Shown here: positions 13,288 through 61,431 of the stretch, piece by piece
Layout: each line of letters starts with the position of its first letter
Position numbering within the stretch: position 1 is the first letter of the stretch
NCBI GenBank assembly: GCA_021324265.1
Contig: JAJPJK010000018.1
Location: forward strand, 5,404-69,403
Origin: Thermoproteota archaeon
GTDB taxonomy: Archaea; Thermoproteota; Thermoprotei; Gearchaeales; Gearchaeaceae
DNA: 64,000 bases
Direction of reading: 5' to 3'
Program-made: the position numbers and the translations under genes
The notes under the pieces: model-generated
Seen by the model: only the letters and a program-made list of their open reading frames with translations
Told to the model about the DNA's origin: nothing
The model's database searches: none

Positions 13288-13321
13288 CGTATGATACTTG
13301 AAAAAAGGTATAAAAGCAACT
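13288..13321 (-). promoter_or_regulatory. Putative leaderless promoter with non-canonical BRE (shared motif, copy 1)
   Basis: AGTTGC-TTTTATA-CCTTTTTTCAAGTATCATACG-ATG; TATA ends 21 nt before the ATG. Confidence 0.55.
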
Positions 13322-13745
13322 AGAGCTCTGCTACGGATATTACTCCAAGAGAAATACAGAGAATTCTAATATAATTTATATTATTATTAATAATTAGTGT
13401 ATTAGAAAAGTTAAAATTATAAAAGATATAACTTCCATTAAAATTTTTTATAATATGATTAGGGTCATTGAGCTCTAGGAAGATCTTCTTGCTTAACCCA
13501 ATATAATTTTTTGTGATGTAAATCCAGGCGCCTTGAGGCAAATAAATCTTTATTGTAAGCGAGCTCAGAGGCTGACTGTATACGAATTGAATTGCATTAT
13601 TTATTTCTTGAACAGCCCTTAGCAACGCTTGATCTTCGAAATAGTTTTTGTCTAAGTATATAAGTGGGAGGCTGTTTATGAACGCTAACGAAATGATTGC
13701 TAAGAGCGTGAATATGACAAGGTAATCAGAAAAATTGGCTGCCAT
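13320..13745 (-). CDS. Minor pilin-like protein
   Basis: Single N-terminal hydrophobic helix then polar beta-rich domain; last gene of pilus operon. Confidence 0.65.
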   Translation of the reverse strand: MAANFSDYLVIFTLLAIISLAFINSLPLIYLDKNYFEDQALLRAVQEINNAIQFVYSQPLSSLTIKIYLPQGAWIYITKNYIGLSKKIFLELNDPNHIIKNFNGSYIFYNFNFSNTLIINNNINYIRILCISLGVISVAEL

Positions 13746-14434
13746 TATGCAAAGAGCCAAAGAACTATGTTCTCTTGATTCTTAATTTCAATAAGTAACT
13801 TATCTTTGTATGTACCATCAAAGATCAGGGTAAAGAAATCTCCGCTTCTTTGGGCAACAAAATCTACAACGCTTCCTTGTGAATAGGCAGTTATATTATA
13901 GCTGGAATCCTTAATTTTCAAATCTTCGCTTATGATATAAACACTTGAGATAAAGATTGTAATGTAGTAGTAAACCCCTATACTTGTATTTGAAGCCCTT
14001 AGGCTTGCATCGAAGACATAGCTAGTTATGTTTGCAAGAATTGTGTTGTTTTCTTGAACTTTAGCTCTGAACGAAGCGCCTTTTCCCTTTAGGCAATTAG
14101 ACGTTATTTCGAAATCAAGGTTTGGCATTGTCCCGAAACTGCTATTTTTGAATATGACTTTTAGATTGCTCGTTGCTTGGTTCCAGTATGTTTTGGCATC
14201 ATTGGTAGCTTTCTGGGAAGCCAAAGCGCAGTCTATATTACCATTTAAGAGATCATGAAATGTTTTATTCGTTGCATATGATAGCGCAGAGGTATAAAAT
14301 GAGAATATCGTTGAAGTTTTCGTTTCCTCCTCATCATCTATGACATATACTTGTAGCCTTAAGTTGGTGAAAGCGAGCGCTATAATTATTAACGATATCA
14401 CGAAAGAAGTTAATATAAGTGCTTGGCCTCTCAT
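13745..14434 (-). CDS. Minor pilin with class III signal peptide
   Basis: MRG|QALILTSFVISLIII prepilin cleavage pattern. Confidence 0.75.
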   Translation of the reverse strand: MRGQALILTSFVISLIIIALAFTNLRLQVYVIDDEEETKTSTIFSFYTSALSYATNKTFHDLLNGNIDCALASQKATNDAKTYWNQATSNLKVIFKNSSFGTMPNLDFEITSNCLKGKGASFRAKVQENNTILANITSYVFDASLRASNTSIGVYYYITIFISSVYIISEDLKIKDSSYNITAYSQGSVVDFVAQRSGDFFTLIFDGTYKDKLLIEIKNQENIVLWLFA

Positions 14435-14435
14435 T

Positions 14436-14843
14436 TCAACTAATCGCTAAGACAATGATTAAAATGTTTGAAGGACTGTTTCCGTTCACTGCTATATAAG
14501 AGGACTCTGAATCTGCGTCATCGAAATAACTTCTTTGATAACTCCACATCAAATACCAGCTCGAGTTATAAAGAGAGATTCTAAAACCATATTCTACAGG
14601 GATGATAGCTTCGGTTGCGTTAACTATCAAGAAATAGTTGCCTTTGAATACTTCTCTAAGAATTCCCGTATAGAGCAAATAAGCTAGAGTCTTTTCAGCA
14701 AGATCCTTTTTTTCCGTTTTGCTTCTAATCATTGCATTACTTGCGAGATATGGGTTTATGAAGAACATCGTCATAGTTAAAAGCAAACAAGCTAGTAGCG
14801 CTTCAATAACTCTTGAGATTGCTCTATGGCTGGCCATATACAT
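14436..14843 (-). CDS. Minor pilin with class III signal peptide
   Basis: HRA|ISRVIEALLACLLL pattern. Confidence 0.72.
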   Translation of the reverse strand: MYMASHRAISRVIEALLACLLLTMTMFFINPYLASNAMIRSKTEKKDLAEKTLAYLLYTGILREVFKGNYFLIVNATEAIIPVEYGFRISLYNSSWYLMWSYQRSYFDDADSESSYIAVNGNSPSNILIIVLAIS

Positions 14844-15228
14844 TTACCTCTATTACTACGAGGGTGTAGCTGGAATTCATGAATGCTCCCAAAGCCTTTG
14901 CTTCGCCTATGAAGCTAGGCAAGCTTGAATTTTTAGGATAAGTACCGTTCTTCAACAAATACACACTTTGTTCGTAGATATATATCCAGTATCTTATCAT
15001 TATGAATATCTTGGCATTTATTTTGTAGAATGAAGGTGTTGCTACGCTATCATTTAGGTGCTTCGTTGAAATTATGTTATCTCTTATCGCAATTGCATAT
15101 TCCAACAAGATAGATCCAATCTTATCTTCATCGTTTGCTGAAAGATAGATGTTGATGCTGAATAATGACCAGCTAAGCACCAATAAAAACAATGCTATAC
15201 CAAGGATAGTTTCTATCGAGCTCTCCAT
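14824..15228 (-). CDS. Minor pilin-like protein
   Basis: MESSIETILGIALFLLVL N-terminal helix; overlaps neighbours in the operon. Confidence 0.65.
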   Translation of the reverse strand: MESSIETILGIALFLLVLSWSLFSINIYLSANDEDKIGSILLEYAIAIRDNIISTKHLNDSVATPSFYKINAKIFIMIRYWIYIYEQSVYLLKNGTYPKNSSLPSFIGEAKALGAFMNSSYTLVVIEVNVYGQP

Positions 15229-17099
15229 TATGGAACTTGGAAAATACTCATCATGTTAGTTATGCTGAGCGAGATAAAGCAGATCATACCGCATAGGATT
15301 GCGTTCTTCGCACCTTCTACACTATTTCCTTCAGCATATCCTCCTAGAAACCCTAAAAAAATAGAGTTGAGATATCCTGCAACCGAAACAAGTTCTTTTA
15401 TGCTTGAAAATGGGATGTTGAGATTCAATAAATTAAAAGAATAAACCATTGTGCTTGCTTGAGCGATAATATTAAACGTTGATACGAGGCTACCCAGCAC
15501 AGCTAGCGAAATTCCCAATGAAAAGCCCAGTAGAGCTGTAATCATATAGCTAGAAAATCTGAAGAATTTCGTCCTCATCTTGTAAATCTTTCTTATGCTA
15601 TCAAGCCTGTACACAAAATCAGCAAATTCTTCCATTGTAGCAGAATCTAGGGCAACCTTATCGCATTCCTCTAATGCTATGAATACCTGTTTAAAGAAAC
15701 TTGGTAGCTTTTCTTTTTCCAGTATTTCCTCCACTGATATGCCCAGCATTCTAAGTAAGCTAATTTTCCTTAGGAAGTCTCCTGCATATTCATATCTCTC
15801 ATGTATCTTATCAATGGCTTGGTAAAGACTATTGCCTTTTTTAACTTCTTCAGCTAAGTCTCTCACTATATTCGGTAGCTCATTCAATAATCTTTCATTC
15901 TCAATTGAGCTTTTTCTATGCAATAAATAGTATCCTATAAGCAAAAACATTGCGCTTGAAAAGAAAGTCATGCTAAGATTAAGAAAGCCCATGAAATTGA
16001 GTATGAAAAAAACAATTGGAGGAAGTAAAAGCAAGTATACTCTACTATCATGCTTCAATCCCATCCTCAGAAAGGGCAATGCGTAACCTTGTATCATAAA
16101 AAAGAAGAGAATGAAGAAAACCGATGGAATTAAAAATAGCGTTGCGAAAAGCATGGAAAAAGTATTGCCTTGCATGAAGAGAAGTGTCATCATTGAAGCG
16201 ATGGGGAGCAAAATGAAGACGATGAGTTGAGCTGCCAAAAGCACATTGAATCTATCTATGAACTCCTCGATCTTTTTTTCAAAAACTTTGAAGGTTTCCT
16301 TCATGTATTCTTTCATAATCGTATAGATCCCTGAGCCTAAGCTTATCGCAGAAATTGCCTGAAGTAATTTTTTGACGGATTCATCTCTTACAATTTTTGC
16401 ATAAAGCGATATTGCATCTATGGGACCTATAGCTAGGAAAGTCTTAAGTCTCTCAATTTGCCTATAGATCCTGTTGAAGCTAGGGAACAATCTCAACTTT
16501 CCAAGCGTGTTTATAGCTGAATAAGGATGTATGTTCGCTGCAGAAAAAGCAGTGATGAACATACTCGCTACAGGCAATTCTCTGCTTATTTTAGAAGTGA
16601 ACTCTCCTTCCTTTATCGCAGGTAGTATCAATAAGTAGCCCAGTAAAAGGAAAGGGATGATGGATATGATCAATAAAATGAGTAGATTTGCTAAATTGCT
16701 TCCGATATCGTTCAAAAATATGGAAAACAATACGAAATTCAATATAAAGGTCATTATCGAAGTGAATAGCACGCTCAATATCAGCTCGTTATATTCCGCC
16801 GGAGTGTATCCTAGCTCCGTGTAATAAAGCCGGCCATAATTTTTATCGTTCTCCTTTTTATATATTTTGGTAAAGAAAAAGAGAGTAAATAAGTTCGATA
16901 AGATTGTAATAAGTAAGTATGAAAATATCCCATACAATAATACAAATAAATTTGATGAAAATATAAAAATAAATAAAGAATAAATAACAACTGGAAGCTT
17001 TATAACAAATTTTATACCAAGCCTTTCTTTTTTAAGAATAAGCTTCAAAATTTTACCCTTTTTGTTCTCTTCTTCAATTAAAACGATCTCCTCACTCAT
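15228..17099 (-). CDS. Type IV pilus membrane platform protein (TadC/ArlJ family)
   Basis: Multi-TM protein with two T2SSF-like repeats (ISRELPVA...; LLNELPNIVRDLAEEVKKGNSL); directly after the ATPase. Confidence 0.88.
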   Translation of the reverse strand: MSEEIVLIEEENKKGKILKLILKKERLGIKFVIKLPVVIYSLFIFIFSSNLFVLLYGIFSYLLITILSNLFTLFFFTKIYKKENDKNYGRLYYTELGYTPAEYNELILSVLFTSIMTFILNFVLFSIFLNDIGSNLANLLILLIISIIPFLLLGYLLILPAIKEGEFTSKISRELPVASMFITAFSAANIHPYSAINTLGKLRLFPSFNRIYRQIERLKTFLAIGPIDAISLYAKIVRDESVKKLLQAISAISLGSGIYTIMKEYMKETFKVFEKKIEEFIDRFNVLLAAQLIVFILLPIASMMTLLFMQGNTFSMLFATLFLIPSVFFILFFFMIQGYALPFLRMGLKHDSRVYLLLLPPIVFFILNFMGFLNLSMTFFSSAMFLLIGYYLLHRKSSIENERLLNELPNIVRDLAEEVKKGNSLYQAIDKIHERYEYAGDFLRKISLLRMLGISVEEILEKEKLPSFFKQVFIALEECDKVALDSATMEEFADFVYRLDSIRKIYKMRTKFFRFSSYMITALLGFSLGISLAVLGSLVSTFNIIAQASTMVYSFNLLNLNIPFSSIKELVSVAGYLNSIFLGFLGGYAEGNSVEGAKNAILCGMICFISLSITNMMSIFQVP

Positions 17100-18681
17100 T
17101 TATTTCACCAATTTCTATGCCTACTTCTTCTTCTCCCAGTCTTTCAGTTAGCCCCTCTTGATGTTCCTCATTGCCTGTTTCAAAGGACTTAGGATTTTCG
17201 TAAAATTTCCATATAAGCTGTGTTACTGTTCTATAATCTAGGAGGTCTTCGTTCGTTTCAGCTTCTTTTTTCAACCTAGAGAAGAATTTATACCTCAATT
17301 CAATCTCTGTTAGTAATTTCTTTTCATCCCATCCTCTTTCCTCCATTATTATTTTACTTGTAGGTAGTTTAAGCAATCCTTCTTCGTCTATTCTTTTGAA
17401 GCTATCATCTTGACTATTGAACTTAGCTACGCTATGAAATCTAGCTCTTTTTCTCTCCAATGATATTTCAAAGTCGAAGAAATCGGAGACCCTTCTTAGG
17501 AATACCTTTCTTGGAACACCTCTTTCATCTTCTTTTATCATGACATATTTTTTCACACCAACTAGCGCGTGTAGGGCTGAAAGGCTTCCTATATCAACTT
17601 TTATAGGCTCTGATAATAACCTCTCTATCGCTGTTGTGTGAGATTCTGCATGGAAGGTCGTTAAGCCACCATGTCCAGTCATTATTGCCTGAGCCCATAT
17701 TTTTCCTTCTTCACCCCTTACTTCTCCTACTACTAGATAATCACCACTCATTCTTAATGCATGCTTTACAAGCATGAACATGTCTATATTGCCCTTTTCA
17801 TCAATAGTCAAACTCTCTCTCGTTATCAAGGGGATCCAGTAAGGATGAGCTAGCCTAATTTCTGGAGTATCTTCTACTGTTATGATAGTTGCTCTCTCGT
17901 TTATACAGTTTGCCAGTGCATTGATCAAACTGGTCTTCCCGCATCCCATGCCTCCATATACTAAAATTGCTTTCTTGTGTTCTATGAGTAGCATCGACCA
18001 TGCAGCGATCCAAGGGTCTATTGTATTATTCACCAGTAATCTAGTCATACTCCAAGGTCTTTCTGGAAACTTTCTTATCGTTATGCTTGAACCTTTATGA
18101 CCAACTTCCTTTTTGTATGTAAGCGTGACCCTTGTCGTATCAGAGGTCCTTATCGATAACAAAGGTTTAAAAGCGCTTATACTTTTGCCACTCCTATATG
18201 CGAACTTCTCTGCATAGAGGTTAATTTCTTTTTCATCCAAAACAACATTCGTTACTAGTTTATCATAATCCGAGTGCACCACTCTTGCAGGTACATCTGG
18301 GCTAGGAACTTGTACATCTTCAACCTTAGGGTCTTTAACCAATGGATCAAGAGCTCCAAATCCAAAAATTTCTCTTTTAAGGAAATAGATTGATCTTTCA
18401 TTTTTAATACCAAGTCTTCTAAGCTCTTTTTCGAAGTTGGAATCGTCGTTGATGTTTACAGCGCGTACTTTAAAGAGCAAATATTCAAGTGTTTCTCTTA
18501 AAGAATTAAGTTCTGCATCACTTATGGGAGGGTCCTCAACCAAGTATTTTCCATTAGCTGTTATGAAAATATGAGATAAACCAATTCTATATTCATCAAT
18601 AATCGTTTCATTAGAGAGTGATACACGATTGATTTTGAAAAGTGAATAATTTGAGAAAAAAGAATTTGTAAACATATTCAC
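17092..18681 (-). CDS. Type II/IV secretion (pilus assembly) ATPase, CpaF/ArlI family
   Basis: Walker A GGMGCGKT, Asp box TVEDTPE, Walker B VVGEVRG, His box GHGGLTTFHAES. Confidence 0.95.
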   Translation of the reverse strand: MNMFTNSFFSNYSLFKINRVSLSNETIIDEYRIGLSHIFITANGKYLVEDPPISDAELNSLRETLEYLLFKVRAVNINDDSNFEKELRRLGIKNERSIYFLKREIFGFGALDPLVKDPKVEDVQVPSPDVPARVVHSDYDKLVTNVVLDEKEINLYAEKFAYRSGKSISAFKPLLSIRTSDTTRVTLTYKKEVGHKGSSITIRKFPERPWSMTRLLVNNTIDPWIAAWSMLLIEHKKAILVYGGMGCGKTSLINALANCINERATIITVEDTPEIRLAHPYWIPLITRESLTIDEKGNIDMFMLVKHALRMSGDYLVVGEVRGEEGKIWAQAIMTGHGGLTTFHAESHTTAIERLLSEPIKVDIGSLSALHALVGVKKYVMIKEDERGVPRKVFLRRVSDFFDFEISLERKRARFHSVAKFNSQDDSFKRIDEEGLLKLPTSKIIMEERGWDEKKLLTEIELRYKFFSRLKKEAETNEDLLDYRTVTQLIWKFYENPKSFETGNEEHQEGLTERLGEEEVGIEIGEINE

Positions 18682-19187
18682 CTTTGAACTACTGCTATGA
18701 AAGGTATAGTGCCTGCTGTTGTTTGTATTACGCCATTGACTTGCGTTAGCGATCCAATGGAAACATTATTAAAGGTAGCGGTAATGGTTTGAGTTTCACC
18801 TGGGTTTATACTGGAGCATTGTTTAGTTGTTGTTGTAGTAGTAGTTGTCCCAGCATTTGTTGTGGTTGTTACAAAACTTACAGAACAATTATTAGACGAT
18901 GCAGTACTTGTGGTACTTCCTGTTATAGTCTGAATATATATTCCTGTTATGTTAGCTTGTAGATTACCTACATTCTTTAATGTAATGTACAAAACAACAT
19001 TGCTACCTTGTACTTGCAAGGTAGGTGTTCCTACAACGATAATATTTGCTTGCTTACTCGTAGAAATACCTAATCCGTAAAGCCAAGAAATTACCAGTGC
19101 AGCTATGCTTATCGATGCTATTACTAGAAGTATTGTTATTATCGGTGCAGAGATATCTCCTCTCTTGTTCTTAATTAGTTTCCTCAT
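18678..19187 (-). CDS. Probable major type IV pilin
   Basis: KNKRG(D)ISAPIITILLVIASISIAALV class III signal; ITLKNVG and INPGET Ig-like strands; Thr-rich loop between two Cys. Confidence 0.88.
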   Translation of the reverse strand: MRKLIKNKRGDISAPIITILLVIASISIAALVISWLYGLGISTSKQANIIVVGTPTLQVQGSNVVLYITLKNVGNLQANITGIYIQTITGSTTSTASSNNCSVSFVTTTTNAGTTTTTTTTKQCSSINPGETQTITATFNNVSIGSLTQVNGVIQTTAGTIPFIAVVQR

Positions 19188-19597
19188 CTCACTATATTAG
19201 GGGGTATATAAAGAGGTGATGGTTTTGTTATGTAGACAATTCCATTTACGTATTGGAAAACTACTATGTTTGAACTCACAGTTCCATAAACGTTCAAAGG
19301 TGAAGGCATTGTTTCATTGATTCCGTAATAAGATATAATAAGGATATTAGTCCCATTGCCTCTAAGATAAACATATTTATTTAAAATTAATGTTATGTTC
19401 TCATTTTTATTATATTTCTGTCCATCATAATATATTTTTTGCAATATGTTTTTTATTTTATAATATATTAAATTAAATTCAAGACTATGATCACTATAAT
19501 AATAGAAGAAGTAAATATTCGAAGATAAAGAAATCAGCAATGCTGAAATGCAAAGCAAAGCAACAGTATTGAGGATCTCGATTATAGCTCTATCCAT
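19184..19597 (-). CDS. Minor pilin-like protein
   Basis: MDRA|IIEILNTVALLCI class III-like N-terminus. Confidence 0.68.
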   Translation of the reverse strand: MDRAIIEILNTVALLCISALLISLSSNIYFFYYYSDHSLEFNLIYYKIKNILQKIYYDGQKYNKNENITLILNKYVYLRGNGTNILIISYYGINETMPSPLNVYGTVSSNIVVFQYVNGIVYITKPSPLYIPPNIVR

Positions 19598-20286
19598 TAT
19601 ACAGCCTGCTGGATCAAGTTCACCTTAATACCTATTAAATAGAAGTTGATTATCGATCTATCATTTATTTTCAAGGAATAAATTGTAGATCCATTGATAT
19701 AGAAGCTCAGCATGAATCCTAGTTGAAATATCCTCGTAAGCGTAACAGCATTCTTTTGTGATTCTATTCTGATCGAATTTTCACCTGTTATTTTTCCTGT
19801 AAAATTGAAATTGAGTATAGATACATAGAAATTATAGATTGTTATGTTTTCTAGCCCAGTTTTGTTTACTTCTATATTCAATGTAGCAATGATAGTTGTG
19901 TTTATTTCCCTAATGGGCTGGGAATTTATAGAATAGAGATCATTTTGGCTGTATTCACATATATTGGAGAGACAAAGCATATACAAGTTCAAGATCCAAC
20001 TAAGCGTTTCGTTGGGCAAGCCTATAGAGAAATTAAAAGCAGTTTTCTGGATGTTTATACTCAATCCTCCAAGATTCAGAATCTTGATGTAATTCTGTTC
20101 ATTCGTAAAATAAATATCATTCAATGTTTCCTTCAGCATTTTCGAAGCTGTTTCAGGATCTATGCTTGCAACCCTACTCGAGTAATCATATTGGTGTGCA
20201 TTAAGGAAACTTAAGATCATGAAGGAAGATATGATCAGTATTGAAACTACGCTTAAGATCTTAATGAGTGTTAATGATATGTTCAT
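19597..20286 (-). CDS. Pilin-like / membrane-anchored surface protein
   Basis: One N-terminal TM helix, Asn-rich beta ectodomain; coupled within the operon. Confidence 0.6.
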   Translation of the reverse strand: MNISLTLIKILSVVSILIISSFMILSFLNAHQYDYSSRVASIDPETASKMLKETLNDIYFTNEQNYIKILNLGGLSINIQKTAFNFSIGLPNETLSWILNLYMLCLSNICEYSQNDLYSINSQPIREINTTIIATLNIEVNKTGLENITIYNFYVSILNFNFTGKITGENSIRIESQKNAVTLTRIFQLGFMLSFYINGSTIYSLKINDRSIINFYLIGIKVNLIQQAV

Positions 20287-21716
20287 GGCCAGCTGTTGTA
20301 GTATAGGATTATGTTTGAATAATCACCTGTTATGAGGATCTCATTTGTACTATTTAGCACAACTTTTATTTCTAGCATATTATATTGGAAGTTTGCTTGT
20401 ATCGCCAATCTTGCATAACCTTGATTGTCTGTCAATGAATAGGATATCGGGACGTTGTCTGCTAGCAAGATGACGGTAGAATTTGGAATGGGACTGAAGT
20501 CACTTAATCTAATTAACTTTATGGTCACGAAATTTTTATCATGAGTCAATACTATGCTTGCAACAGTATCCCATGCTAGGTTTGCTGCATAGCTATTAGG
20601 AATAAGCCCTCCATCATAGTACTGAGGATAGAAGTTCAAGATTCCATACAAAGCTCTAAGTTTATTCACTATAATCCCTTTGTTGAGTGTGAAATTCAAA
20701 TAGCCATTCTTATCGCATGCAGGTGAAGACATGGAAAGCCCCCTTAAGTTTAGGCTTATTACGTTCTCCTTGCCGATCACCATTCCTGAATTATCGGCCC
20801 ATTGAAGAGCAAATTTTACGATATAAGCATCGCTAGTATCGTATATATTTACAACCTTCGGTAATACACCCATGACTTTTACTTCAGTCGAGTTAAAAGC
20901 TGAATATGTGTAATTTTGGGTTGAAAAGGTTGTTCTTATAGTGATCTTAACATTACTGAAGATACTGAGGTATATATAACCAGTCGAATTGGGCAGCCCC
21001 AGTTCATAATTTCCTTCAGGAATCGTTATATTGACAATTAGCGATTTCGAGGGTGTAAACTGTATTGTTTTATTCAATTCAATGGTATCTACAGATGAAA
21101 CTTCACTTCCAAGCCTTTTGAGTATTAGGCTGCTGGTTTTCACCAATGTATTAATTGTTAGATTTCCTTTGCCTAGATAGCTCGTACTAGGGAAATTTAT
21201 AGTAAGTTTAGCCTCAATTTTTATCTTCTCCAGCGGTAGAAAAACCTTTCCAGCTTCATTGTTGATCGCATCCTCGATGGTAATATTTATGCTACTATAG
21301 CTTGAACCTATTTTAGAAACAATGAAATAAAGGCTAGCATAAGCTTTTCCTCCGATGACTTGTATTACATAAAGGTTGCCCGTGAACGTGGCTGTAGTAT
21401 TTGCTGATAAAGGATTTGCGATTTCAATATCATATGAAGCACCCCATGAATTGAAAATGTATCCAGAAGGGAAAATGGCAGTTATTCTATGCTTCCCATA
21501 GGGGTATGCTATTATATCGCCACTTTGATGAAACTGGTTGTCTATATAAACTCCGAAGCCTGAACCTGTTAGCAAGACAATATTGTTTCCAGTCATTGAA
21601 TAAACGCCTATTTTAAGCATAATGCTAGTTGTATCAGCACTTAAACTATGAACATTTGATGGTATGATATATAATAGGATCACCAAAATGAAAATCCAAG
21701 TTTTTAACTTCTTCAT
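20283..21716 (-). CDS. Secreted beta-rich surface protein, putative adhesin
   Basis: Sec signal peptide; PSGYIFNSW repeat-like motif; C-terminal Ig-like ..PIPNSTV..LTDNQGYA; many N-x-S/T sequons. Confidence 0.65.
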   Translation of the reverse strand: MKKLKTWIFILVILLYIIPSNVHSLSADTTSIMLKIGVYSMTGNNIVLLTGSGFGVYIDNQFHQSGDIIAYPYGKHRITAIFPSGYIFNSWGASYDIEIANPLSANTTATFTGNLYVIQVIGGKAYASLYFIVSKIGSSYSSINITIEDAINNEAGKVFLPLEKIKIEAKLTINFPSTSYLGKGNLTINTLVKTSSLILKRLGSEVSSVDTIELNKTIQFTPSKSLIVNITIPEGNYELGLPNSTGYIYLSIFSNVKITIRTTFSTQNYTYSAFNSTEVKVMGVLPKVVNIYDTSDAYIVKFALQWADNSGMVIGKENVISLNLRGLSMSSPACDKNGYLNFTLNKGIIVNKLRALYGILNFYPQYYDGGLIPNSYAANLAWDTVASIVLTHDKNFVTIKLIRLSDFSPIPNSTVILLADNVPISYSLTDNQGYARLAIQANFQYNMLEIKVVLNSTNEILITGDYSNIILYYNSWP

Positions 21717-21750
21717 CGAAATTCTTTTTTAAATCGCTATTTAAGCCACT
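21717..21750 (-). promoter_or_regulatory. Putative leaderless promoter of the pilus operon (shared motif, copy 2)
   Basis: AGTGGC-TTAAATA-GCGATTTAAAAAAGAATTTCG-ATG; TATA ends 21 nt before the ATG. Confidence 0.6.
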
Positions 21751-21847
21751 GAGAAATTTTGAGATAGAACTAGATGAAGGACTTAAATCTCTTTCTTATT
21801 TAAACCATTGAGAAGTTTTATAATCGATCTTCAATAATAAAAAATAA

Positions 21848-21933
21848 GCGGGGGTACCCGAGCCAGGTCAAAGGGGCAAGCCTGAGGCGCTTGTGCGGTA
21901 AGCGCTGCGTGGGTTCAAATCCCACCCCCCGCA
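21848..21933 (+). tRNA. tRNA-Leu(GAG)
   Basis: GCGGGGG/CCCCCGC acceptor, CAAGC-CT-GAG-GC-GCTTG, long variable arm. Confidence 0.96.
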
Positions 21934-35673: not shown

Positions 35674-35675
35674 TA

Positions 35676-53920: not shown

Positions 53921-53954
53921 AATAAGATAAGTCTTGAGTAGGTAAATAACTTAA

Positions 53955-54515
53955 ATGAGCTTTTCAGATTTTTTGCAAAAAACGTCTGAATCAAAGATGA
54001 GATTGTTATTTATAAAAAAGGTGAGCAGAAAATCTGTCTTCATGAATATTTTGAATTTGTTACAATCGCCGTATTATTCAGGAGTTATCCTTGGAATAAG
54101 TGTTATGTTAAAATACGGCGAATTCTTGTCCAACTTCCTTTCAGACTGTTATAGATTAAACGTGAAATCTGTATTGGATTTTCCTATAATATCTGGCTTT
54201 ATAGAAGAAGAGCTATTCACCTTTATTTCTAATCTAGGTTTCGACGCTTTGATAACACTACCTGATGCAGAAATAAGCAAGTTCATTAGAAAGCATGGAA
54301 TGGGTCTAATCTGTTACGGTTACGTAGAAGGAAGAGCATCGCTCAATGAACTAATTTCAGCAAATTTAAGAAATATAGACTGCGATGGTATTTTCACATT
54401 AAATGCCAATAAGGAAATGATCTCGTTACTAAAAATAAATTTTAGAAAAGTAACTATGAATCTGGGCGAAGTAAAAGGCGATATCGAGATTGAAATTTTT
54501 AGGGACCTAACATGA
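53955..54515 (+). CDS. Degenerate OMP decarboxylase-like protein
   Basis: PyrF-like layout (MSF..RL, G..G..L.YG, VLDF, GFDALI) but no DxKxxD. Confidence 0.5.
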
Positions 54516-54678
54516 TCTTCAGTCTTTCATCTAACTTCTTTGTTTCCTCTTCTTTCCTAAATAGATCAAGCAATGCAAATCTTATCAATTCACTTCTACT
54601 AGTGAATCTACCTTGTTGAATTAGTTTATCTATTCGCTCCAGATAAGCCTCCGGTAACTTTATTGAGATTATCTTCAT
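54499..54678 (-). CDS. Ribbon-helix-helix regulator (CopG/CdrS-like, 59 aa, not in ORF track)
   Basis: [39 protein letters not shown]. Confidence 0.88.
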
Positions 54679-54726
54679 ATTACCTCGGTATTACTATCTT
54701 GGGTCTGATAAAAGTATTATCTTCTT

Positions 54727-55587
54727 ATGAAGAGAGCTAACTTTAGAATGGCTTTTTCATCACAAAAAACTAGAATACGCACAAAAAAACGCACTCCTGA
54801 GCGCTTAAAGTTTCAGTTAAGCCTTCTTGATGAGATCGCTTATGAAGGTTTTCCATCTAACTCTTTTATACTGATTTCTGGTGAAGGCGGAATTGCCAAG
54901 TCTACGATACTTCAATGTTTGGCCAACAAATTTATAGAAAGTCGATTTCCATGCATATATCTTTGCGTCGACGAGCATCCTTTATCTGTTTATCAGAACA
55001 TGTGCTTACATGGATTCAAGTTAAAGAAATACTTGAAGAAAGGAATCTTTCAGTTCATCGATCTGTTCACATATAAGTTGAATTTGCAGAATGAAGAATT
55101 CGATTTCTTGAAAAATTCTCTTGTAGTAAATTATCCCATCAATTGGCAGAGCTTGCTCAATACGGTTGTATCTTATGTAACGCTTTTAGAATCAAGATAT
55201 GGGAAGGCATTAGTGATAATAGATTCTCTTACAGAGTTGTTGAATAAGTTAGATGTTAATTCTGTTCTCGATTTAATGAAGGCATTAAGATTTGAGATTT
55301 GTAAGAAAAGGAATCATCCAATCTTTGCTAGCTCCCATTTCGGGATAAAGACATTCGAAGAGTTTGAGCAAATACTCGAGTATCATGTAGACGGCATCAT
55401 AGATTTGAGATATGATCCCGTAGCTATGCAGTATGGATCATTAGTTAAGCAGTTGCGTATAAGAAAACTTCGTGCTTCAAGATACCAGAGCAAATGGTAT
55501 TCTTTTGATATTGGAAATGGTGATTTGATAAAGTCAGAGGTTGATACTATTCCTCAAAAGTTAGGGAGCTTAAATATCAATTTATAA
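54727..55587 (+). CDS. KaiC/RAD55-like RecA-superfamily ATPase
   Basis: GFP..ILISGEGGIAKS (variant Walker A), VIIDS, DGIIDL, RIRKLR. Confidence 0.85.
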   Translation: MKRANFRMAFSSQKTRIRTKKRTPERLKFQLSLLDEIAYEGFPSNSFILISGEGGIAKSTILQCLANKFIESRFPCIYLCVDEHPLSVYQNMCLHGFKLKKYLKKGIFQFIDLFTYKLNLQNEEFDFLKNSLVVNYPINWQSLLNTVVSYVTLLESRYGKALVIIDSLTELLNKLDVNSVLDLMKALRFEICKKRNHPIFASSHFGIKTFEEFEQILEYHVDGIIDLRYDPVAMQYGSLVKQLRIRKLRASRYQSKWYSFDIGNGDLIKSEVDTIPQKLGSLNINL

Positions 55588-55602
55588 AGACTATGTAGAG
55601 AG

Positions 55603-55911
55603 ATGACCGAAAATGAAAAACTGAGCAGACTAGTTGTTGAAGCGTTATTATTGTTGGAGGCGATACCAAAATTTTATGGCATCAATTTAACTGAAGAGAA
55701 TGTCGAAAGCGTTCTCTACTTGGTCTATGGCCTTAATGAGAAGCAAGCCATTACTTTAATTGAAACTTCACGAGGCAAAGTATTCGAAGATTCAGCATAT
55801 GTAGTAAAAAAAGCCAGAAAGGAGCTATACAAGTTTTTAAGCTGCATGGGTAAAATAGTAGTAGTAGAGGCTTTCTTTGAAACTGGTGCATATGAATTCA
55901 GAACAACTTGA
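55603..55911 (+). CDS. Hypothetical protein
   Basis: 102-aa ORF co-oriented with neighbours. Confidence 0.55.
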   Translation: MTENEKLSRLVVEALLLLEAIPKFYGINLTEENVESVLYLVYGLNEKQAITLIETSRGKVFEDSAYVVKKARKELYKFLSCMGKIVVVEAFFETGAYEFRTT

Positions 55912-56260
55912 GAAATACGTGGTAAGCGTCGTAGAGAATGATAAGATCTTGTCAAAAATAGAGTTAATAAGGCATTTAAATCCCATCCTTATTGAAAGGA
56001 TTGTTCGTGTGCTACCTTTATCTTCCTTTATTTTAGTCCTTAAGGACAGAATACTGCTGAAGGTAACAGCCAACTATGGTGTAGCGAAGAAAAAGACCAT
56101 CCATGAAGTAGGCGATGTGGCTTTTGACTCGCTTAATAGCGCAATCATAATTTATACAGATAAAAGCGTTGATGAATTTGAGAATATAGGAAAGGTAAAG
56201 GAGGGACTAGAAAATCTCTATAAGTTAAAAACTGGTAATTTAGTTCTCCTTAAATTATAA
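55877..56260 (+). CDS. Cyclophilin-like fold protein
   Basis: ELIRHLNP..LP...GDVAF..N.IGKV pattern. Confidence 0.6.
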   Translation: MKLVHMNSEQLEKYVVSVVENDKILSKIELIRHLNPILIERIVRVLPLSSFILVLKDRILLKVTANYGVAKKKTIHEVGDVAFDSLNSAIIIYTDKSVDEFENIGKVKEGLENLYKLKTGNLVLLKL

Positions 56261-56596
56261 CTGAATGAAATCTGGTTTTTTGAATAATGTAATTATTGGT
56301 ATCGATATGTAACCTGCTTTAGTCTTATCCGCAAAAGTTATGCTCTCACCAGTTTCATCCACTTTCACGAGGATGTATTTACCTTCTTCTTTGTCAGTGC
56401 AATAATAGAATATAGGTACGCCATTCAAGTTGAAGTAATCATGAAATATAGCAAGCAACCCGTAATAATTTTCTTGTTCATACTTGAAATGAATCACATA
56501 AGCGGGTTGTCCTAGACTTATCATAAGAGCTGCGAATCTCGCAATATCTGATATTGAAGCCACCCTTATAGAATACAGCGGTCTTATTTCGGACAT
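56255..56596 (-). CDS. Conserved crenarchaeal hypothetical protein
   Basis: V.SISDIARFA, DYFNLNGVPIFYY, IPII pattern. Confidence 0.7.
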   Translation of the reverse strand: MSEIRPLYSIRVASISDIARFAALMISLGQPAYVIHFKYEQENYYGLLAIFHDYFNLNGVPIFYYCTDKEEGKYILVKVDETGESITFADKTKAGYISIPIITLFKKPDFIQL

Positions 56597-56677
56597 TACT
56601 TTAGAATGACTGTTCAGCCTTATTTCTTTATCTTTTTAACCTTAATGGGGGGTTAAAGGGGGCGGAGTAGTTCACTA

Positions 56678-57220
56678 TTATCTCCTCAGTATTTCTGTTT
56701 TGCTATTCAGTTTTACTCCGAAAAAATAAGTTAGCGCTGGAACAATGATGATGGTGCTTATGATACCGAAATAAAAGTAGGCTTGGAAGGCTACATTAAA
56801 ACTCGTTCGGAAAGTTATGGAATTAGCTAAGGATGATATCCATGCATAAAACGAGGCTGATATAAGGCATGCTAACACATTTACAACGATATGTGTTTTC
56901 TTCTCAGGTTCTTCCTTAAATAACACATTATGGAAAAGCAATACCATTGCAGTCGCAATGGAAAATAAAATAGAAAGTTGGACTGGCATTTTGATGATAT
57001 AGGAATAAGCAAAATATCCTATGAAACCGCCCAGAAGAGAAGAGTATTTCGTAGCGTAAGGAGTTACCAAAAAGATTAAGAAAAAAAGAGGCGCTACTGC
57101 GCTAATAAAATTATTTTGGAAAGGTAAATAGATGATAAAATAATTTATGAGTGGTATTAATATTATTAATAAGATAGTTCCTATAATCCCTTTCTTAAAA
57201 TTAGAAATTTTCTTAAACAT
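56678..57220 (-). CDS. Membrane protein, possibly ECF S-component-like
   Basis: About 5-6 TM segments, 180 aa, GGFIG motif. Confidence 0.55.
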   Translation of the reverse strand: MFKKISNFKKGIIGTILLIILIPLINYFIIYLPFQNNFISAVAPLFFLIFLVTPYATKYSSLLGGFIGYFAYSYIIKMPVQLSILFSIATAMVLLFHNVLFKEEPEKKTHIVVNVLACLISASFYAWISSLANSITFRTSFNVAFQAYFYFGIISTIIIVPALTYFFGVKLNSKTEILRR

Positions 57221-57242
57221 AAAAAATTAAAAAATTTTTCTT

Positions 57243-57596
57243 CTACTTTACTTTTTCTAGATGTATTTCGATAATTGATACGTCTCTTGCTTTTTCGCCT
57301 TCTCCGACTCGTTCTGTACCAATTTCAATCTTGGATACTGCAACAGCGCCTGGTAGGAATTTGTTCTTTAATATTTCCACAACATCGACGGCCCTCGAAA
57401 TGTTGGAGCCTCTAGCCTTCAAAACAGCTTTGCTGGATCCTCTTTGGAACTGCATCAGTGTAGCTACGACATAACCCATTATAGGCTTTTTGCCTATTAA
57501 CACAGTATTTTCGGGGATCGCTGTTCTCCTCTTTTCCTGTTCACCAACAACCGGAACGCCTTCGGATCTAGATTCTTCAGCTGACATGTTTCTCAC
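57243..57596 (-). CDS. albA: Chromatin protein Alba
   Basis: IGKKPIMGYV, KARGSNISRAVDV, VSIIEI. Confidence 0.96.
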   Translation of the reverse strand: MRNMSAEESRSEGVPVVGEQEKRRTAIPENTVLIGKKPIMGYVVATLMQFQRGSSKAVLKARGSNISRAVDVVEILKNKFLPGAVAVSKIEIGTERVGEGEKARDVSIIEIHLEKVK

Positions 57597-57636
57597 TCGT
57601 TAATAGAAAATTAAGATAGAGGTTACTTATAAATGT

Positions 57637-58875
57637 TTAGCTTCTTTGGTTTGAGTCTATGAACTCTCTTATTCTTTCGATCCCTTCTTTGATTAACTCA
57701 GGATTAAGCACTCCTGGAGATATGGATAATCTTGTCCATCCGTCCATTCCAAAGTCGATGCCAGGCGCTAAAGCTACTCTAACTTTCTCAAGTAAGTGTG
57801 TGCAAAATTCCCTAGAATTCGGATTTACAGAAGAGTGATTAAAGAAAAGGTAGAATGCACCTTTTGGTTCATTGAGGTAAAACTCAGGAATTTTGTCCCT
57901 TAGATATCTATAGCTCATAAGTGCTATTCCTTGGTAGGTCTCATTCCCTCTTTCAATGAATTCTTTTAAGCTCTTTATGTTATCCTCTTTTGAGATCATC
58001 TCAGCGAATACTTTTTGTATAAAACCGTTTGGGCATAAAGTTTTAAGTTGTTCTACAAGTTCGAAGTTTCTTATCATTTCTTTTGAAGCTATAACATATG
58101 CAAGCCTTAAACCTGGTATTCTCAATTCTTTCGAAAATGTACATATGAATATTTCATGTGGCTCCACAGCATTACTGAAATAACTTGGTTTCTCGGTGTA
58201 GCAGAATCCTCTATAAGCTAAGTCTGTTATCAAGAAGACCCCTTTTTCTTTAGCAATCTCAGAGATCTCGTTGAAGAGACGATCGCTAATAATTTGTCCG
58301 TCAGGATTACCTGGGCTTGCCAATATTATTGCTTTTGTTTTATCATTAACGAGTTCCTTCAATTGTTCAATGTTTGGCCCATAGGTGTAGTCATCTCTCA
58401 GTAAATTCCAATATTTAATTTTAACGTTCAGATTTCCTACAAAATAGGATTGTCTTGAAAAGTTCAAATAATGAGGTTTGGTGAGGATTACTTCATCGCC
58501 TTCATCTAATATAGCTTCCAATACTGTGAGGGCTATTTCAGTACTCCCGTTTGAGATCAAAATTTCACTTTCATTAATATCCCTACCATAAATCCCCTTC
58601 TCATAGTCTACGATTGCCGTTAATGTTTCTGTCAAACCTCTCGTAGGTCCATATTGAACAGCCCTTGAAAATTTTTCCTCGTTACTTATTACTTCTAACA
58701 TTGCCTCCTTTAGTAAAGAAGGAGGCGGATCCTGAGGCCATCCTCCAGCAAGATAAATCAATTTCTTTCCTTCCTTTGTTCCTCTTTTAGTGAATTCTTC
58801 TAAAAGATTCATGATTTCTCTTAGTGTATTTGGGTTGTTTCTCAAAAACTGAGCCTTTTTGGATGTTCTAGGCAT
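57637..58875 (-). CDS. PLP-dependent aminotransferase class I/II
   Basis: GNPDG, DLAY, TFSK..PGLRL. Confidence 0.92.
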   Translation of the reverse strand: MPRTSKKAQFLRNNPNTLREIMNLLEEFTKRGTKEGKKLIYLAGGWPQDPPPSLLKEAMLEVISNEEKFSRAVQYGPTRGLTETLTAIVDYEKGIYGRDINESEILISNGSTEIALTVLEAILDEGDEVILTKPHYLNFSRQSYFVGNLNVKIKYWNLLRDDYTYGPNIEQLKELVNDKTKAIILASPGNPDGQIISDRLFNEISEIAKEKGVFLITDLAYRGFCYTEKPSYFSNAVEPHEIFICTFSKELRIPGLRLAYVIASKEMIRNFELVEQLKTLCPNGFIQKVFAEMISKEDNIKSLKEFIERGNETYQGIALMSYRYLRDKIPEFYLNEPKGAFYLFFNHSSVNPNSREFCTHLLEKVRVALAPGIDFGMDGWTRLSISPGVLNPELIKEGIERIREFIDSNQRS

Positions 58876-58916
58876 AAAATTTAAGAAGCTTGAAAATTAA
58901 TTAAACCTATCGGCCA

Positions 58917-59240
58917 ATGGAAGTAGTATTTAGCGCACTTCTTATTTCGAAGACAATGTTTAGGGATAATAACGAATGGTATGTAAGACTTGAATTTTCG
59001 CAGGAAAAAGGGACGCCTCCTACTATTTCAAATCCTTCGATGGATCCTGCATTACAAGGCATTATACCCATTATGCAACAAGTTATGAGGAACATAATTC
59101 CTCAAGCTTCTTTAATGCCTAGATTGATTCTGATCTTGAGAGAAGACGAATGGGAAAAACTTGAAAATAAGCCAGATATAGGAGATGAAGTTACTATAAA
59201 ATTCTCTGATAATAAAGAAATAAGCTTTAGAAAAAGTTAG
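58917..59240 (+). CDS. Arcadin-1 homologue
   Basis: SK....YVRLE..EK, P..QQVMR, PRLILILREDEWE.L..DIGDEVTI, matching the Pyrobaculum arcadin-1 pattern as recalled. Confidence 0.8.
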   Translation: MEVVFSALLISKTMFRDNNEWYVRLEFSQEKGTPPTISNPSMDPALQGIIPIMQQVMRNIIPQASLMPRLILILREDEWEKLENKPDIGDEVTIKFSDNKEISFRKS

Positions 59241-59503
59241 GAAATTTCTGCTAGATATTCTTTACCTGTATCTGATCCTCTTTTTACCAGAAAAGGTAGC
59301 TTGCCTGCTTCAAGTTCTAAGGCCGCTATTTTTATTGGGTCTGTTAAGTTCTCCGGTACTTTGATTAAAGGCTCTGCACCTTGTAAAAGCTGCATCGCTC
59401 TTATCCCTATGAGCCTAGCTCTTTCGTATCTTATATCCTTGTAAGGTATATCAAATAAAGTAGGCAATTCTAATTTCTCACGTGTTTTTTTCTTAGAATT
59501 CAC
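59237..59503 (-). CDS. rpo6: RNA polymerase subunit Rpo6 (K)
   Basis: RYERARLIGIRAMQL..GA, IAALEL..GKLP; start placed at GTG 59503. Confidence 0.93.
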   Translation of the reverse strand: MNSKKKTREKLELPTLFDIPYKDIRYERARLIGIRAMQLLQGAEPLIKVPENLTDPIKIAALELEAGKLPFLVKRGSDTGKEYLAEIS

Positions 59504-61139
59504 CCGGCGGGGGTGTTTCTTCGCCTCCTTCACGTTTACCTTTCTCAGGTTTTGAAGGTGCTGCAGATATTATATCATCTATCCTTAGAATCATTATAGC
59601 AGCTTCGGTTGCTGCCCTTATAGCTTGCAATTTAACGTTTGCAGGATCTAATATTCCTAACTTGGCCATGTCTTCTATTGAACCATCCAGCACGTTTATA
59701 CCGTAGTAGTACTTTCCTTCTGAATGCATTGCTCTCAGTTTAACTATAGAATCTATTGGATCCATTCCAGCAGTTTCTGCAAGGATAGAAGGTATCACTT
59801 CCAAGGCCTCAGCAAATTTCATTGCAGCCAATTGTTCTTTGCTAGGCAATCCTTTTGCGAAATCCCTTACTTTTAAAGCGAGTGAAGCCTCTATTGCACC
59901 TCCACCAGGGAATAATTTTCTCTTTTCCAATGCATTTTTACATACATGTAAAGCATCCTTTAATGCTCTTTCAGCTTCATCCACTATGAGTTCAGAACCT
60001 CCTCTAATCAATATGGTAACAGCCTTGGGATTCTTGCAACCTTCAATAAAGAGCATCTTTTCTTCTCCAACCTTCCTTTCCTCGACGAGTTCTGCAAAAC
60101 CTAGATCTTCTGGCTTTATATCCTCAATATCTGTTATTATTCTTGCACCTGTAGCCCTTGCTATTTTTTCCATATCACTTTCCTTCACTCTTCTCACAGC
60201 AAGGATGTTTTTCTTCTTCAATAAGAACTGGGCTGTATCATCGATGCCTTTTTGGCATATTAACACATTAGCGCCTACTGAAGCTAGTTTATCAACCATT
60301 TTCGCTAGTATCTTAGTTTCCTCATCTAAGAAACTCTTCATTTGTTCAGGTGAGGTTATGCTGATCTTAGATGAGATTTCTGGTTTTTCAATTTCTAAAG
60401 GCGCATTCAACACTGCAATTTTAGCATTTCTCACAAGCTTTGGCATTCCTGGGTGAACTACTTCTTTGTCTATCACTAAACCTTTAATAAGTTCAGTTTC
60501 ATCGAGAGATTTTCCTTTCCTTTTCTCAAGCTTAATATAATCTATATTAATCCTTGTTTCACCATTTACTTGTTCAGCTACTTGAAGGCATGCCTGCAAT
60601 GCTAGATCAGCGAGTCTTTCTTTGTATTCACTTATCGCCTTGCTATACATAGATGTCATAATAACCTTCTTAAGTGTTTCGTAATCTTTCTCGCCAAGCT
60701 TGATCGCCATTTCGTCCATTTCTTTGATTACGAATTCTAATGCTTTCCTGTATCCATCTATAATAGTAGTTGGGTGTACGTTCTGCAAAAGAAGTTCTTC
60801 AGCCTTCTTCAAAAGTTCGCCTGCCAATACGACCACTGTGGTTGTTCCATCACCTACTTCAGAATCTTGAGCCTTTGCTACTTCTACGAGCATTTTCGCT
60901 GCCGGATGGTTTATCTCCATTTCCTTTAAAATTGTAGCTCCATCTCCAGTTATAGTAACATCTCCTAGGCTGTCTACTAGCATTTTATCTAATCCTCTTG
61001 GTCCTAAGGATGTTTTCAGAACTTCTGAAAGTACTTTTGCTGCAGCGATATTCACATCATAAGCTTCCTTACCTAATGTCCTCTTTGTCCCCTCCTTGAG
61101 TATTAAGAAAGGAACAGTTTGTCCAGAAGCCTGCGCCAT
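59493..61139 (-). CDS. ths: Thermosome (group II chaperonin) subunit
   Basis: [21 protein letters not shown]. Confidence 0.97.
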
Positions 61140-61195
61140 ATCAATTACTTATTTGGGAACATTAGTTATTTAAATTTTTCTAGCCATAATCTAGT

Positions 61196-61387
61196 GTGGC
61201 CGAAGACGAGCGCGAAATTAAGAAATATACAGTCTATATAACAACAATATTTTTAGTATTGTTTATAATATACGACATTATAGCTAGTATAGTAGATTAT
61301 ACTTTATCACAAGATCTACTATATTTTCTTATATTAATAACAGCTATCCCTTTCGTACTTTCACTAGTTAATTATTTTAGGAAATAA
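61196..61387 (+). CDS. Small two-TM membrane protein
   Basis: 63 aa with two hydrophobic helices. Confidence 0.55.
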   Translation: MAEDEREIKKYTVYITTIFLVLFIIYDIIASIVDYTLSQDLLYFLILITAIPFVLSLVNYFRK

Positions 61388-61397
61388 TCCTGGGATT

Positions 61398-61431
61398 GCG
61401 TGGTTAAATACCGATTTCAAAGTATTAGTCG
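61398..61431 (+). promoter_or_regulatory. Putative leaderless promoter (shared motif, copy 3)
   Basis: GCGTGG-TTAAATA-CCGATTTCAAAGTATTAGTCG-ATG; TATA ends 21 nt before the ATG. Confidence 0.6.

Follow-up and report, generated by a model that had tools for sequence, protein, structure and literature searches.

A conserved class of leaderless core promoters shared by a type IV pilus operon, a truncated transcription factor B and RadA in hot-spring Thermoproteota

Do the archaeal paralogues of transcription factor B (TFB) select promoters in the way sigma factors do in bacteria? The question is a long-standing one, and TFB3, which among the truncated paralogues has been studied best, is said not to read DNA (PMC6101594; this and the other papers are cited here from excerpts of their texts). 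It is raised again by a 64,000-nucleotide stretch of the genome of an uncultured Thermoproteota archaeon (assembly GCA_021324265.1, contig JAJPJK010000018.1, positions 5,404 to 69,403; G000:C5:5404-69403 in our numbering, and hereafter the window), which belongs to an assembly of 1.45 Mb in 25 contigs with about 37% G+C. Three short promoters in this window, those of a type IV pilus operon, of a pair of putative regulator genes at the end of this operon and of a distant gene for a small pilin-like protein, here called VirB2-like, are strikingly alike. So do these promoters form a class of their own and, if so, what reads them? The answer to the first part is well supported: a conserved promoter class links the pilus operon, the regulator pair, small pilins and RadA and, less securely, also takes in a CedD/VirB4-like ATPase and a PD-(D/E)XK nuclease. 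The promoters of this class have no A-rich TFB-recognition element (BRE) and carry G or C beside the TATA box, which has the form TTAAATA or TTTTATA and lies about 21 nt from the start codon; the box is usually followed by C/G-C and then by a T-rich stretch, often with G at -1. We consider it probable that the trio represents a real, evolutionarily maintained class of leaderless core promoters that is best read as the mark of a co-regulated programme of cell contact, DNA uptake and recombination.

All three sites, when re-extracted, were found verbatim on the strands and at the coordinates assigned to them in a preliminary description of this DNA (Table 1). Each contains a 7-nt TATA element at -28 to -22, has 21 nt between this element and the ATG, and ends in CG directly before the ATG, exactly as had been claimed. 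Across the 34 nt, the pairwise identities are 20, 19 and 21, and those in the downstream 21 nt are 12, 9 and 14, the last value, for the VirB2-like and regulator-pair sites, being the one that had been reported; 14 of the 34 columns are invariant. The GT(G/T)G said to replace the A-rich BRE is indeed present in all three sites, but in the VirB2-like promoter it lies one base nearer to the TATA box and is thus out of register. The thermosome promoter, which serves as the canonical contrast, also reads as originally written. The hexamer CTAGTT, which occurs upstream of all three sites at varying distance, was judged a chance occurrence given the number of possible hexamers.

How much of this likeness is to be expected of any leaderless gene? 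All null distributions employed here are built on our own crude gene calls (1,519 genes in the source genome, G000). TATA-like heptamers are most frequent at -30 to -28 from the start codons of this genome, which implies that leaderless transcripts are common and that the 21-nt spacing is generic, a caveat of the preliminary description that is borne out in full. The base composition of the trio is another matter. Generic promoters have 46-64% A at -6 to -3 from the TATA box and 56% T at -1, and only 11 of 195 strict candidates combine at most one A with at least two Gs in the six bases before it; the trio supplies three of these 11, so that the BRE position is as unusual as had been claimed, and a small pilin promoter on contig C15 is also among them. 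G at -1 from the TATA box is found in 19 of the 195 and [CG]C after it in 16, and a TATA box with [CG]C alone, which precedes 21 genes of mixed function, is not specific.

It is in the whole alignment that the trio stands out. When similarity is weighted by column background, the score of the trio is equalled or exceeded by 5 of the 39,085,222 triples drawn from 618 candidates. With the TATA box fixed at exactly -28 (136 candidates), the trio ranks second of 409,772 triples, 6 standard deviations above the mean, and the only triple above it combines the RadA, VirB2-like and regulator-pair promoters; the window contig holds nine such candidates and hence 84 triples, for a selection-corrected expectation of about 4e-4. 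Under a shift-tolerant score with one strict promoter per gene, the trio reaches z=5.7, a score attained by none of 100,000 random triples, and a five-gene set that adds RadA and the small pilin reaches z 8.2. Finally, position weight matrices (PWMs) built from two sites place the omitted one 4th, 5th and 21st among 2.9 million positions, the ranks counting the two training sites and the site itself. Thus, the likeness is real and goes beyond the generic features of leaderless promoters. It is not concentrated in front of the TATA box: the six nt upstream of the box, taken alone, yield leave-one-out ranks of 9,450 to 1,201,511 of 2.9 million. Three sub-elements, each taken by itself, were rejected as nonspecific signatures, namely the BRE hexamer, the 8 nt that follow the TATA box, and the combination of BRE, TATA box and next 3 nt (ranks 59 to 1,201,511 of 2.9 million).

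Which other genes of G000 share this pattern? The genome-wide scan with a three-site PWM that had been proposed earlier returned 33 other matches above 8 bits, four of which lie at candidate start codons, namely those of RadA, of a small pilin (77 aa, on contig C15), of a 356-aa CedD/VirB4/HerA-like ATPase and of a 304-aa PD-(D/E)XK protein. This agrees with the kinds of gene that the preliminary description had predicted such a scan to pick up. The RadA and 77-aa pilin promoters are also the closest to the trio among the 618 candidates (z about 4.4 and 3.7, respectively). The pattern TWWAWA[CG]C[GT]WTTT occurs 27 times in the genome, and the five occurrences at gene starts are those of the trio, RadA and the nuclease. 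By likeness to the five-gene set, the CedD-like promoter comes first and the nuclease promoter second of 233 (186.5 and 180.6, the next being 159.1). The 356-aa ATPase has DUF87/HerA and TrwB matches, and among the NCBIfam models it matches CedD best (E 1.2e-31, under the cut-off), followed by VirB4 and CedB; the 304-aa protein combines DUF3782 with a PD-(D/E)XK domain. The genes picked up in this way, RadA, a pilin, a CedD-like ATPase and a nuclease, are functionally coherent, which supports a shared programme.

Is the class maintained in evolution? The nearest genomes are metagenome-assembled genomes of Thermoproteota and the single-cell genome 'Crenarchaeota archaeon SCGC AAA471-B05'. The pilus promoter orthologues in G001 and G002 keep (C/T)TAAATA, followed by GC or CC, a T-rich stretch and AAAA; in the orthologues of the regulator-pair promoter, the TATA box is preceded by GC or CC in all six genomes, with G at -1 in five; and in the family of the 111-aa VirB2-like protein, TTAAATA and the non-A upstream stretch recur in G001-G005, G007 and G008. 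What persists, then, is the type of TATA box, the lack of an A-rich BRE (usually with G/C beside the box), the T-rich stretch and, often, G at -1. The GT(G/T)G word itself is not conserved in the orthologous promoters, where only the A-poor character of this position survives.

The shift-tolerant similarity was then evaluated against one strict promoter per gene in two relatives that had not been used for picking the genes, over 356 kb of G001, which belongs to the same genus, and 364 kb of G007 (where sequence windows containing N were excluded). In G007, the orthologous trio gives p=0.004, the quartet with RadA p=1.3e-4, and the quintet with the small pilin p=1e-5; in G001, the quartet gives p=0.017 and the quintet is matched by none of 100,000 random sets. 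The expectation that the orthologous promoters resemble one another is accordingly borne out for all three sets in G007 and for the two larger ones in G001, but not for the G001 trio. The regulator-pair promoter of G001 has the small-pilin promoter as its nearest neighbour, and so has the pilus promoter if an alternative start of the operon itself is set aside. Moreover, the regulator-pair, RadA and small-pilin promoters, which all read TTTATAC(C/T) in G000, read TTTATATC in G001; the change in the TATA flank is concerted.

What, then, could read these promoters? Two candidates are encoded in the locus itself, behind an internal promoter that begins immediately 3' of the stop codon of the preceding operon gene (the intergenic gap is 32 nt), and the pair is present and syntenic in all six loci examined. 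The first is a putative winged helix-turn-helix (wHTH) protein of 66 aa that is 80-89% identical between two genera, compared with 26-77% for the neighbouring genes, and weakly resembles the ArgR DNA-binding domain (NCBIfam E 0.0026; Pfam E 0.034). The second, of 245 aa, had been labelled a TFB paralogue, and it proves to be a true TFB derivative: against nine canonical TFBs, hhalign gives a probability of 99.0% (E 8.5e-18) over residues 2-235, the match spanning the Zn ribbon, the linker and the first cyclin repeat, with most of the second repeat deleted. The last 30 or so residues of the second repeat, a helix-turn-helix (HTH), appear to be kept in altered form in this mini-TFB. The C-terminal HTH segment of the second cyclin repeat is the part of TFB and TFIIB that reads the BRE. 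Residues 201-231 of the mini-TFB (LKYLTLKEIALIAGVRHDSARVVQMKIKRM) align with the canonical ...TQ.EIA...VTEVTIRNR.KEL, and most of the recognition-helix residues differ.

The affinity of the mini-TFB is not apparent from single-sequence comparison. On its own, the protein matches the TFIIB Zn ribbon at a score under the gathering threshold (PF08271, E 5e-4) and none of the PF00382 cyclin repeats, of which a TFB has two; the four cysteines of the ribbon, C4, C7, C22 and C25, are invariant in 11 sequences. Pfam on the last 70 residues and NCBIfam on the whole protein give no match, and sequence comparison with solved structures yields nothing meaningful for either member of the pair. The family profile reaches bona fide TFBs over query residues 2-183, structure-atlas neighbours are of TFIIB type with weak TM scores, and the Zn ribbon is closest to that of a 325-aa TFB encoded on contig C15 (hhalign 94.4%, E 8.6e-8). 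The family is narrow, with seven proteins, and three representatives at E<=1e-30 among 1.84 billion; across 41 genomes of the taxonomic class, no match beyond the Zn ribbon was found outside the organism's own family. G000 has five other TFB-type open reading frames that PF00382 recognizes, one of them below the cut-off; in addition to the C15 gene, the genome has a 319-aa protein, taken here as the housekeeping TFB, with an adjacent 214-aa cyclin-only protein (contig C4), a 307-aa protein (C20) and a 198-aa protein (C9).

What has been observed is the sequence class with its conservation and the set of domains in the mini-TFB. By analogy with the Sulfolobales, the most likely arrangement, as to how the genes are co-regulated, what the pair does and in which direction the regulation runs, would be the following. 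The weak BRE would keep the promoters of the class off as long as only the housekeeping TFB is available; the locus-encoded pair, the 66-aa protein together with the mini-TFB, would supply the missing recruitment; and the pair, whose own promoter belongs to the class, would be subject to positive feedback. This membership makes autoregulation of the pair plausible. Likewise plausible is the suggestion that the circuit is independently wired compared with that of Sulfolobus, where an A(N)TTTC element is involved; here this element is found, by eye, in one of the three upstream regions, that of the pilus promoter (AATTTC at about -42 to -37 from the ATG).

Which member of the pair would confer the specificity? 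One possibility, which we consider tenable although it falls short of being probable, is that a conventional factor, either the 66-aa wHTH protein or an unlinked Orc1-2-like protein, binds a site overlapping the core promoter, the mini-TFB being no more than a target and a sequence-blind co-activator, the part that TFB3 plays in Sulfolobus. This would agree with the fact that the likeness of the trio resides mostly in and downstream of the TATA box rather than in the six nt upstream, and with the Sulfolobales precedent, in which the regulon is set by Orc1-2 on ANTTTC, with TFB3 co-activating (PMC6061795, PMC6101594); the activation of weak-BRE promoters through TFB recruitment is itself on record (PMC5817253). 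The wHTH gene shows, furthermore, translational coupling with the mini-TFB gene and a higher conservation than any other gene of the module. This very conservation is hard to square with the role of a sequence-specific reader, given that the protein is almost invariant though the promoter words differ among the genomes. In addition, its affinity with DNA-binding domains consists of the weak matches mentioned above, inspection of the class promoters revealed neither dyad symmetry nor a fixed word beyond the TATA flanks, and an Orc1-2-like solution would sit uneasily with ANTTTC being present in one upstream region of three.

The model put forward in the preliminary description goes further in that the mini-TFB would replace the housekeeping TFB and read the non-A BRE through its altered C-terminal HTH, in a sigma-like and autoregulated manner. 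The parts required for a place in the complex, namely the Zn ribbon and cyclin repeat 1, are kept; residues 201-231 fall on the BRE-type HTH with the recognition helix mostly changed; and this helix differs between the two genera, as do the sequences at the BRE position, so that a fast-evolving reader would fit changing promoter words better than the 66-aa protein does. Nevertheless, we deem this model unlikely. With the second cyclin repeat largely gone, the HTH may no longer be positioned correctly over the BRE, no consistent BRE word can be derived within or across genomes, and the six nt before the TATA box, as noted, hold little of the likeness of the trio; TFB3, the only truncated TFB that has been studied, is written not to bind DNA in the excerpted account (PMC6101594). 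A shallower comparison put a different HTH-like segment, residues 131-180, on the BRE-reading end of the second repeat at 28% probability; it is superseded by the deeper hhalign alignment. Equally doubtful is the full extension of the model, namely that a promoter-selective mini-TFB and its winged-helix partner define, in sigma style and with autoregulation, a contact, DNA-import and RadA regulon independent of the TFB3/Ups/Ced circuit.

Several findings weigh against a co-regulated class as such. By an unweighted count of invariant columns, 88 of 14,190 triples from 45 strict candidates tie with or beat the trio. The exact words GTGG, CCGATTT and CG-ATG are lost in the orthologous promoters. 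In G001, the three promoters by themselves do not reach significance (p=0.095), and the relatives, being kin, provide tests that are not fully independent, with nulls from partial genomes and our own gene calls. The added members carry only part of the pattern: with the three-site PWM, no other match in the genome exceeds 17.1 bits, against at least 39.7 for the trio. The likeness of the CedD-like promoter is reproduced weakly in the relatives (2nd of 47 in G001, 8th of 71 in G007), and the nuclease, a member of a multi-copy family, is assigned to the class from its G000 promoter. The regulator-pair, small-pilin and CedD-like promoters all abut or overlap the end of a preceding co-directional gene and, oligo-T being an archaeal termination signal, their T-runs could partly serve termination or coding. 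Lastly, the first gene of the second pilus-like locus, the 325-aa TFB of contig C15, has a promoter without the class pattern.

Taken to their conclusion, these points, together with the generic nature of the TATA box and its spacing and the mixed functions of the 21 genes with TATA and [CG]C, would mean that there is no common regulation and that unrelated genes share only a promoter style (strong or short-spaced leaderless promoters, a terminator-promoter junction, or inherited chance likeness), but this is quite improbable in view of the extreme position that the trio takes, in the weighted tests, among hundreds of thousands to millions of triples, the fact that the orthologous sets of G007 and G001 are outliers again despite their diverged sequences, the functional coherence of the class genes and the concerted change of the TATA flank between G000 and G001.

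The features of the locus are collected in Table 1. The pilus operon has an ATPase, a platform protein and a pilin with a class III signal, the combination expected of an archaeal type IV pilus; it also encodes a 477-aa secreted protein and several small pilin-like proteins, and an UpsA match within it is below the curated cut-off (NCBIfam E 0.0032). The whole module, that is, the pilus operon with the 66-aa and 245-aa genes, is syntenic in G001, G002 and G007, and partly so in G005 and G008, where the contigs are short. In G000, G001, G002 and G007, all the genomes in which both ends are seen, the 9.4-kb module is flanked by the same two tRNA-Leu genes on the opposite strand, an arrangement that may be a matter of conserved synteny or may go back to an ancient insertion between tRNA genes. 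Another copy of TTTAAATA is located at 21790-21808, in the stretch that separates tRNA-Leu(GAG) from the pilus promoter and about 46 nt away from the tRNA, and could be the promoter of that tRNA on the other strand.

Table 1. Coordinates of promoters, genes and loci (window positions, or contig and positions in G000 for features outside the window)
Feature	Position	Strand	Remarks
Pilus-operon core promoter	21717..21750	minus	AGTGGC, TTAAATA, 21 nt, then ATG at 21716
Internal promoter of regulator pair (wHTH site)	13288..13321	minus	AGTTGC, TTTTATA, 21 nt, then ATG at 13287
Promoter of small pilin-like (VirB2-like, 111-aa) gene	61398..61431	plus	GCGTGG, TTAAATA, 21 nt, then ATG at 61432
66-aa putative winged-helix protein	13087..13287	minus	4-nt overlap with next gene
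245-aa mini-TFB	12353..13090	minus	Zn ribbon, linker, one cyclin repeat, C-terminal HTH remnant of repeat 2
Ten-gene type IV pilus operon	13320..21716	minus	
UpsF/TadC-like platform protein	15228-17099	minus	NCBIfam UpsF E 2.7e-23 (below curated cut-off)
FlaI/T2SSE-type ATPase	17092-18681	minus	Pfam T2SSE E 9.5e-27; NCBIfam FlaI E 3.2e-73 (below curated cut-off)
169-aa class-III-signal pilin	18678-19187	minus	N-terminus MRKLIKNKRGDISAPIITILLVIA
111-aa protein	61432..61767	plus	signal-peptide-like N-terminus and two hydrophobic helices
RadA gene	C20:42606-43559		outside window
77-aa protein	C15:119849-120082		class-III-signal N-terminus; outside window
Second pilus-like locus (L081)	C15:118408-124260	minus	outside window
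tRNA-Leu(CAA)	12243..12330	plus	borders module on TFB side
tRNA-Leu(GAG)	21848..21933	plus	borders module about 100 nt beyond pilus promoter
Thermosome promoter	61140..61195	minus	GAAAAA-TTTAAATA; canonical contrast
Thermosome gene	59493-61139	minus	Cpn60_TCP1, E 5.5e-190
TATA-binding protein (TBP) gene	63314-63886		1.5 kb from VirB2-like gene, tail to tail with M50 peptidase gene

The 111-aa protein belongs to a family that is present in 29 of the 41 genomes of the taxonomic class. The VirB2 label given to it earlier is a weak one: it reflects the architecture and faint PF04956 (TrbC/VirB2) matches in 5 of 14 relatives (best E 0.0013), the window protein itself being unmatched; sequence comparison with solved chains gives no match, the structure-atlas neighbours are without names, and a related-locus search with the protein returned no relative. 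In the window, the gene is surrounded by those for the thermosome, a GNAT protein and an M50 peptidase, and no VirB4/CedB or VirB6/CedA neighbour is seen there or in G013 and G033; orthology with CedA1 by synteny was rejected for the latter two genomes, where the upstream neighbour is radical-SAM-like. Public collections carry the protein from residue 11 (101 aa). The start at 61432 gives a better signal-like N-terminus, a length as in the orthologues and the 21-nt distance from the TATA box. In three relatives, a RadA paralogue of about 235 aa is encoded 4-6 kb from the VirB2-like gene (G002:C5:47691-48389, G005:C14:19450-20133 and G007:C33:145936-146622); the G000 contig ends before the equivalent position.

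The second pilus-like locus of G000, on contig C15, comprises genes for the 325-aa divergent TFB, a 134-aa coiled-coil protein, a 567-aa T2SSE-type ATPase, two membrane proteins, the 77-aa pilin and two unknowns. Two further groups of similar promoters came up in the course of the similarity tests. The promoters of a 192-aa protein (C11:126928-127506) and a 106-aa membrane protein (C18:33464-33784) share ...AAAAAAATGGGAG.A.TC.. between the TATA box and the start; this pair ranks among the top pairs with both the 618 and the -28-conditioned candidates and could represent another small regulon or a shared leader. Of the promoters of C13:43984-44844, C20:32855-33559 and C15:93272-94201, two have TGGCTTTATAGGC around the TATA box and the third has CGGCTATATAGGC; they include the top-scoring pair of the weighted test on the 618 candidates.

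What would it mean if the co-regulated programme is real? The system is a compact one, with a handful of short promoters conserved across two genera, a 245-aa TFB derivative with an HTH-like segment in the BRE-reading place and a 66-aa partner, and it suggests that the Sulfolobales are not alone in having a single transcriptional switch for adhesive pili, DNA uptake and RadA recombination, the wiring in these uncultured hot-spring Thermoproteota being different. Should the mini-TFB itself prove to read promoters, this would be a second, independently built circuit of the TFB3/Ups/Ced type, with the specificity lodged in the TFB paralogue. The association of TFIIB homologues with archaeal pilus loci and the TFB3/Ups/Ced regulon of the Sulfolobales are already published; a literature search of limited extent, which does not exclude that one exists, found no description of a core-promoter signature shared by such genes.

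How does the locus compare with known systems? The 111-aa protein resembles VirB2/TrbC, CedA1 and TedC in its small size, signal-like segment, two hydrophobic helices and the weak PF04956 matches of its relatives; CedA1 and TedC form VirB2-like pili, being two-helix pilins with the signal peptide of TedC cleaved (PMC9905601). It differs from them in having neither a match to a solved chain nor a VirB4 or VirB6 neighbour in the window and the two genomes mentioned. The pilus module itself resembles the type IV pilus loci surveyed by Makarova et al. (2016), in which TFIIB homologues are the commonest predicted regulators (PMC4858521): a Zn-finger TFIIB homologue, predicted to be a regulator, is encoded in the pilus operon, and G000 has two such pairings, in the window and on contig C15. 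A single-cyclin TFIIB homologue, arCOG05559, is reported there for subclade 4D of the Pyrobaculum-Thermoproteus group in the Thermoproteales, the other one being arCOG01981 (PMC4858521; repeated in PMC13705601). Compared by description, subclade 4D is without pilins, whereas the window operon has a full pilin set, and the excerpted text of that survey describes no promoter class or target set (PMC4858521).

In terms of the proposed logic, and by analogy only, the closest bacterial counterpart would be the extracytoplasmic function (ECF) type of sigma factor. ECF-type alternative sigma factors are autoregulated, and the archaeal initiation complex also needs TBP. Here, too, a paralogue of an initiation factor is encoded in the locus, its own promoter would belong to the regulon, and the gene set would be small and dedicated.

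A further comparison is with the DNA-damage regulon of the Sulfolobales, to which the proposed programme would be analogous in function. There, the ups promoters have weak BREs and need extra factors and the A(N)TTTC motif at -44 to -39 (PMC5817253), to which Orc1-2 binds (PMC6061795); TFB3, which has no HTH and depends on its Zn ribbon and coiled coil, is an activator of ups and ced, and in 13 genera truncated TFBs are found together with Ced (PMC6101594); and CedD is a VirB4-related ATPase required for DNA import (PMC11868833). In both cases, a type IV pilus operon, components of the Ced type and the gene of a truncated TFB share a promoter signature (PMC5817253, PMC6101594, PMC6061795, PMC11868833), the pilus promoters have weak BREs, and the purpose is cell contact and DNA exchange for recombination, which for the present genome is predicted from the genes. 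There are also differences. In the Sulfolobales, the A(N)TTTC motif bound by Orc1-2 lies upstream of the BRE, whereas here the likeness is inside the core promoter; and, unlike in TFB3's own promoter, no A(N)TTTC was found, by eye, in the approximately 100 nt upstream of the regulator pair. TFB3 is described as HTH-less with a coiled coil (PMC6101594), whereas the 245-aa protein keeps one cyclin repeat and an HTH-like remnant and, unlike TFB3, is encoded inside the pilus module with a wHTH partner. Finally, RadA belongs to the promoter class here, whereas the homologous recombination genes of the Sulfolobales, RadA included, are discussed in the excerpted account among the TFB3-independent genes of the DNA damage response (PMC6101594).

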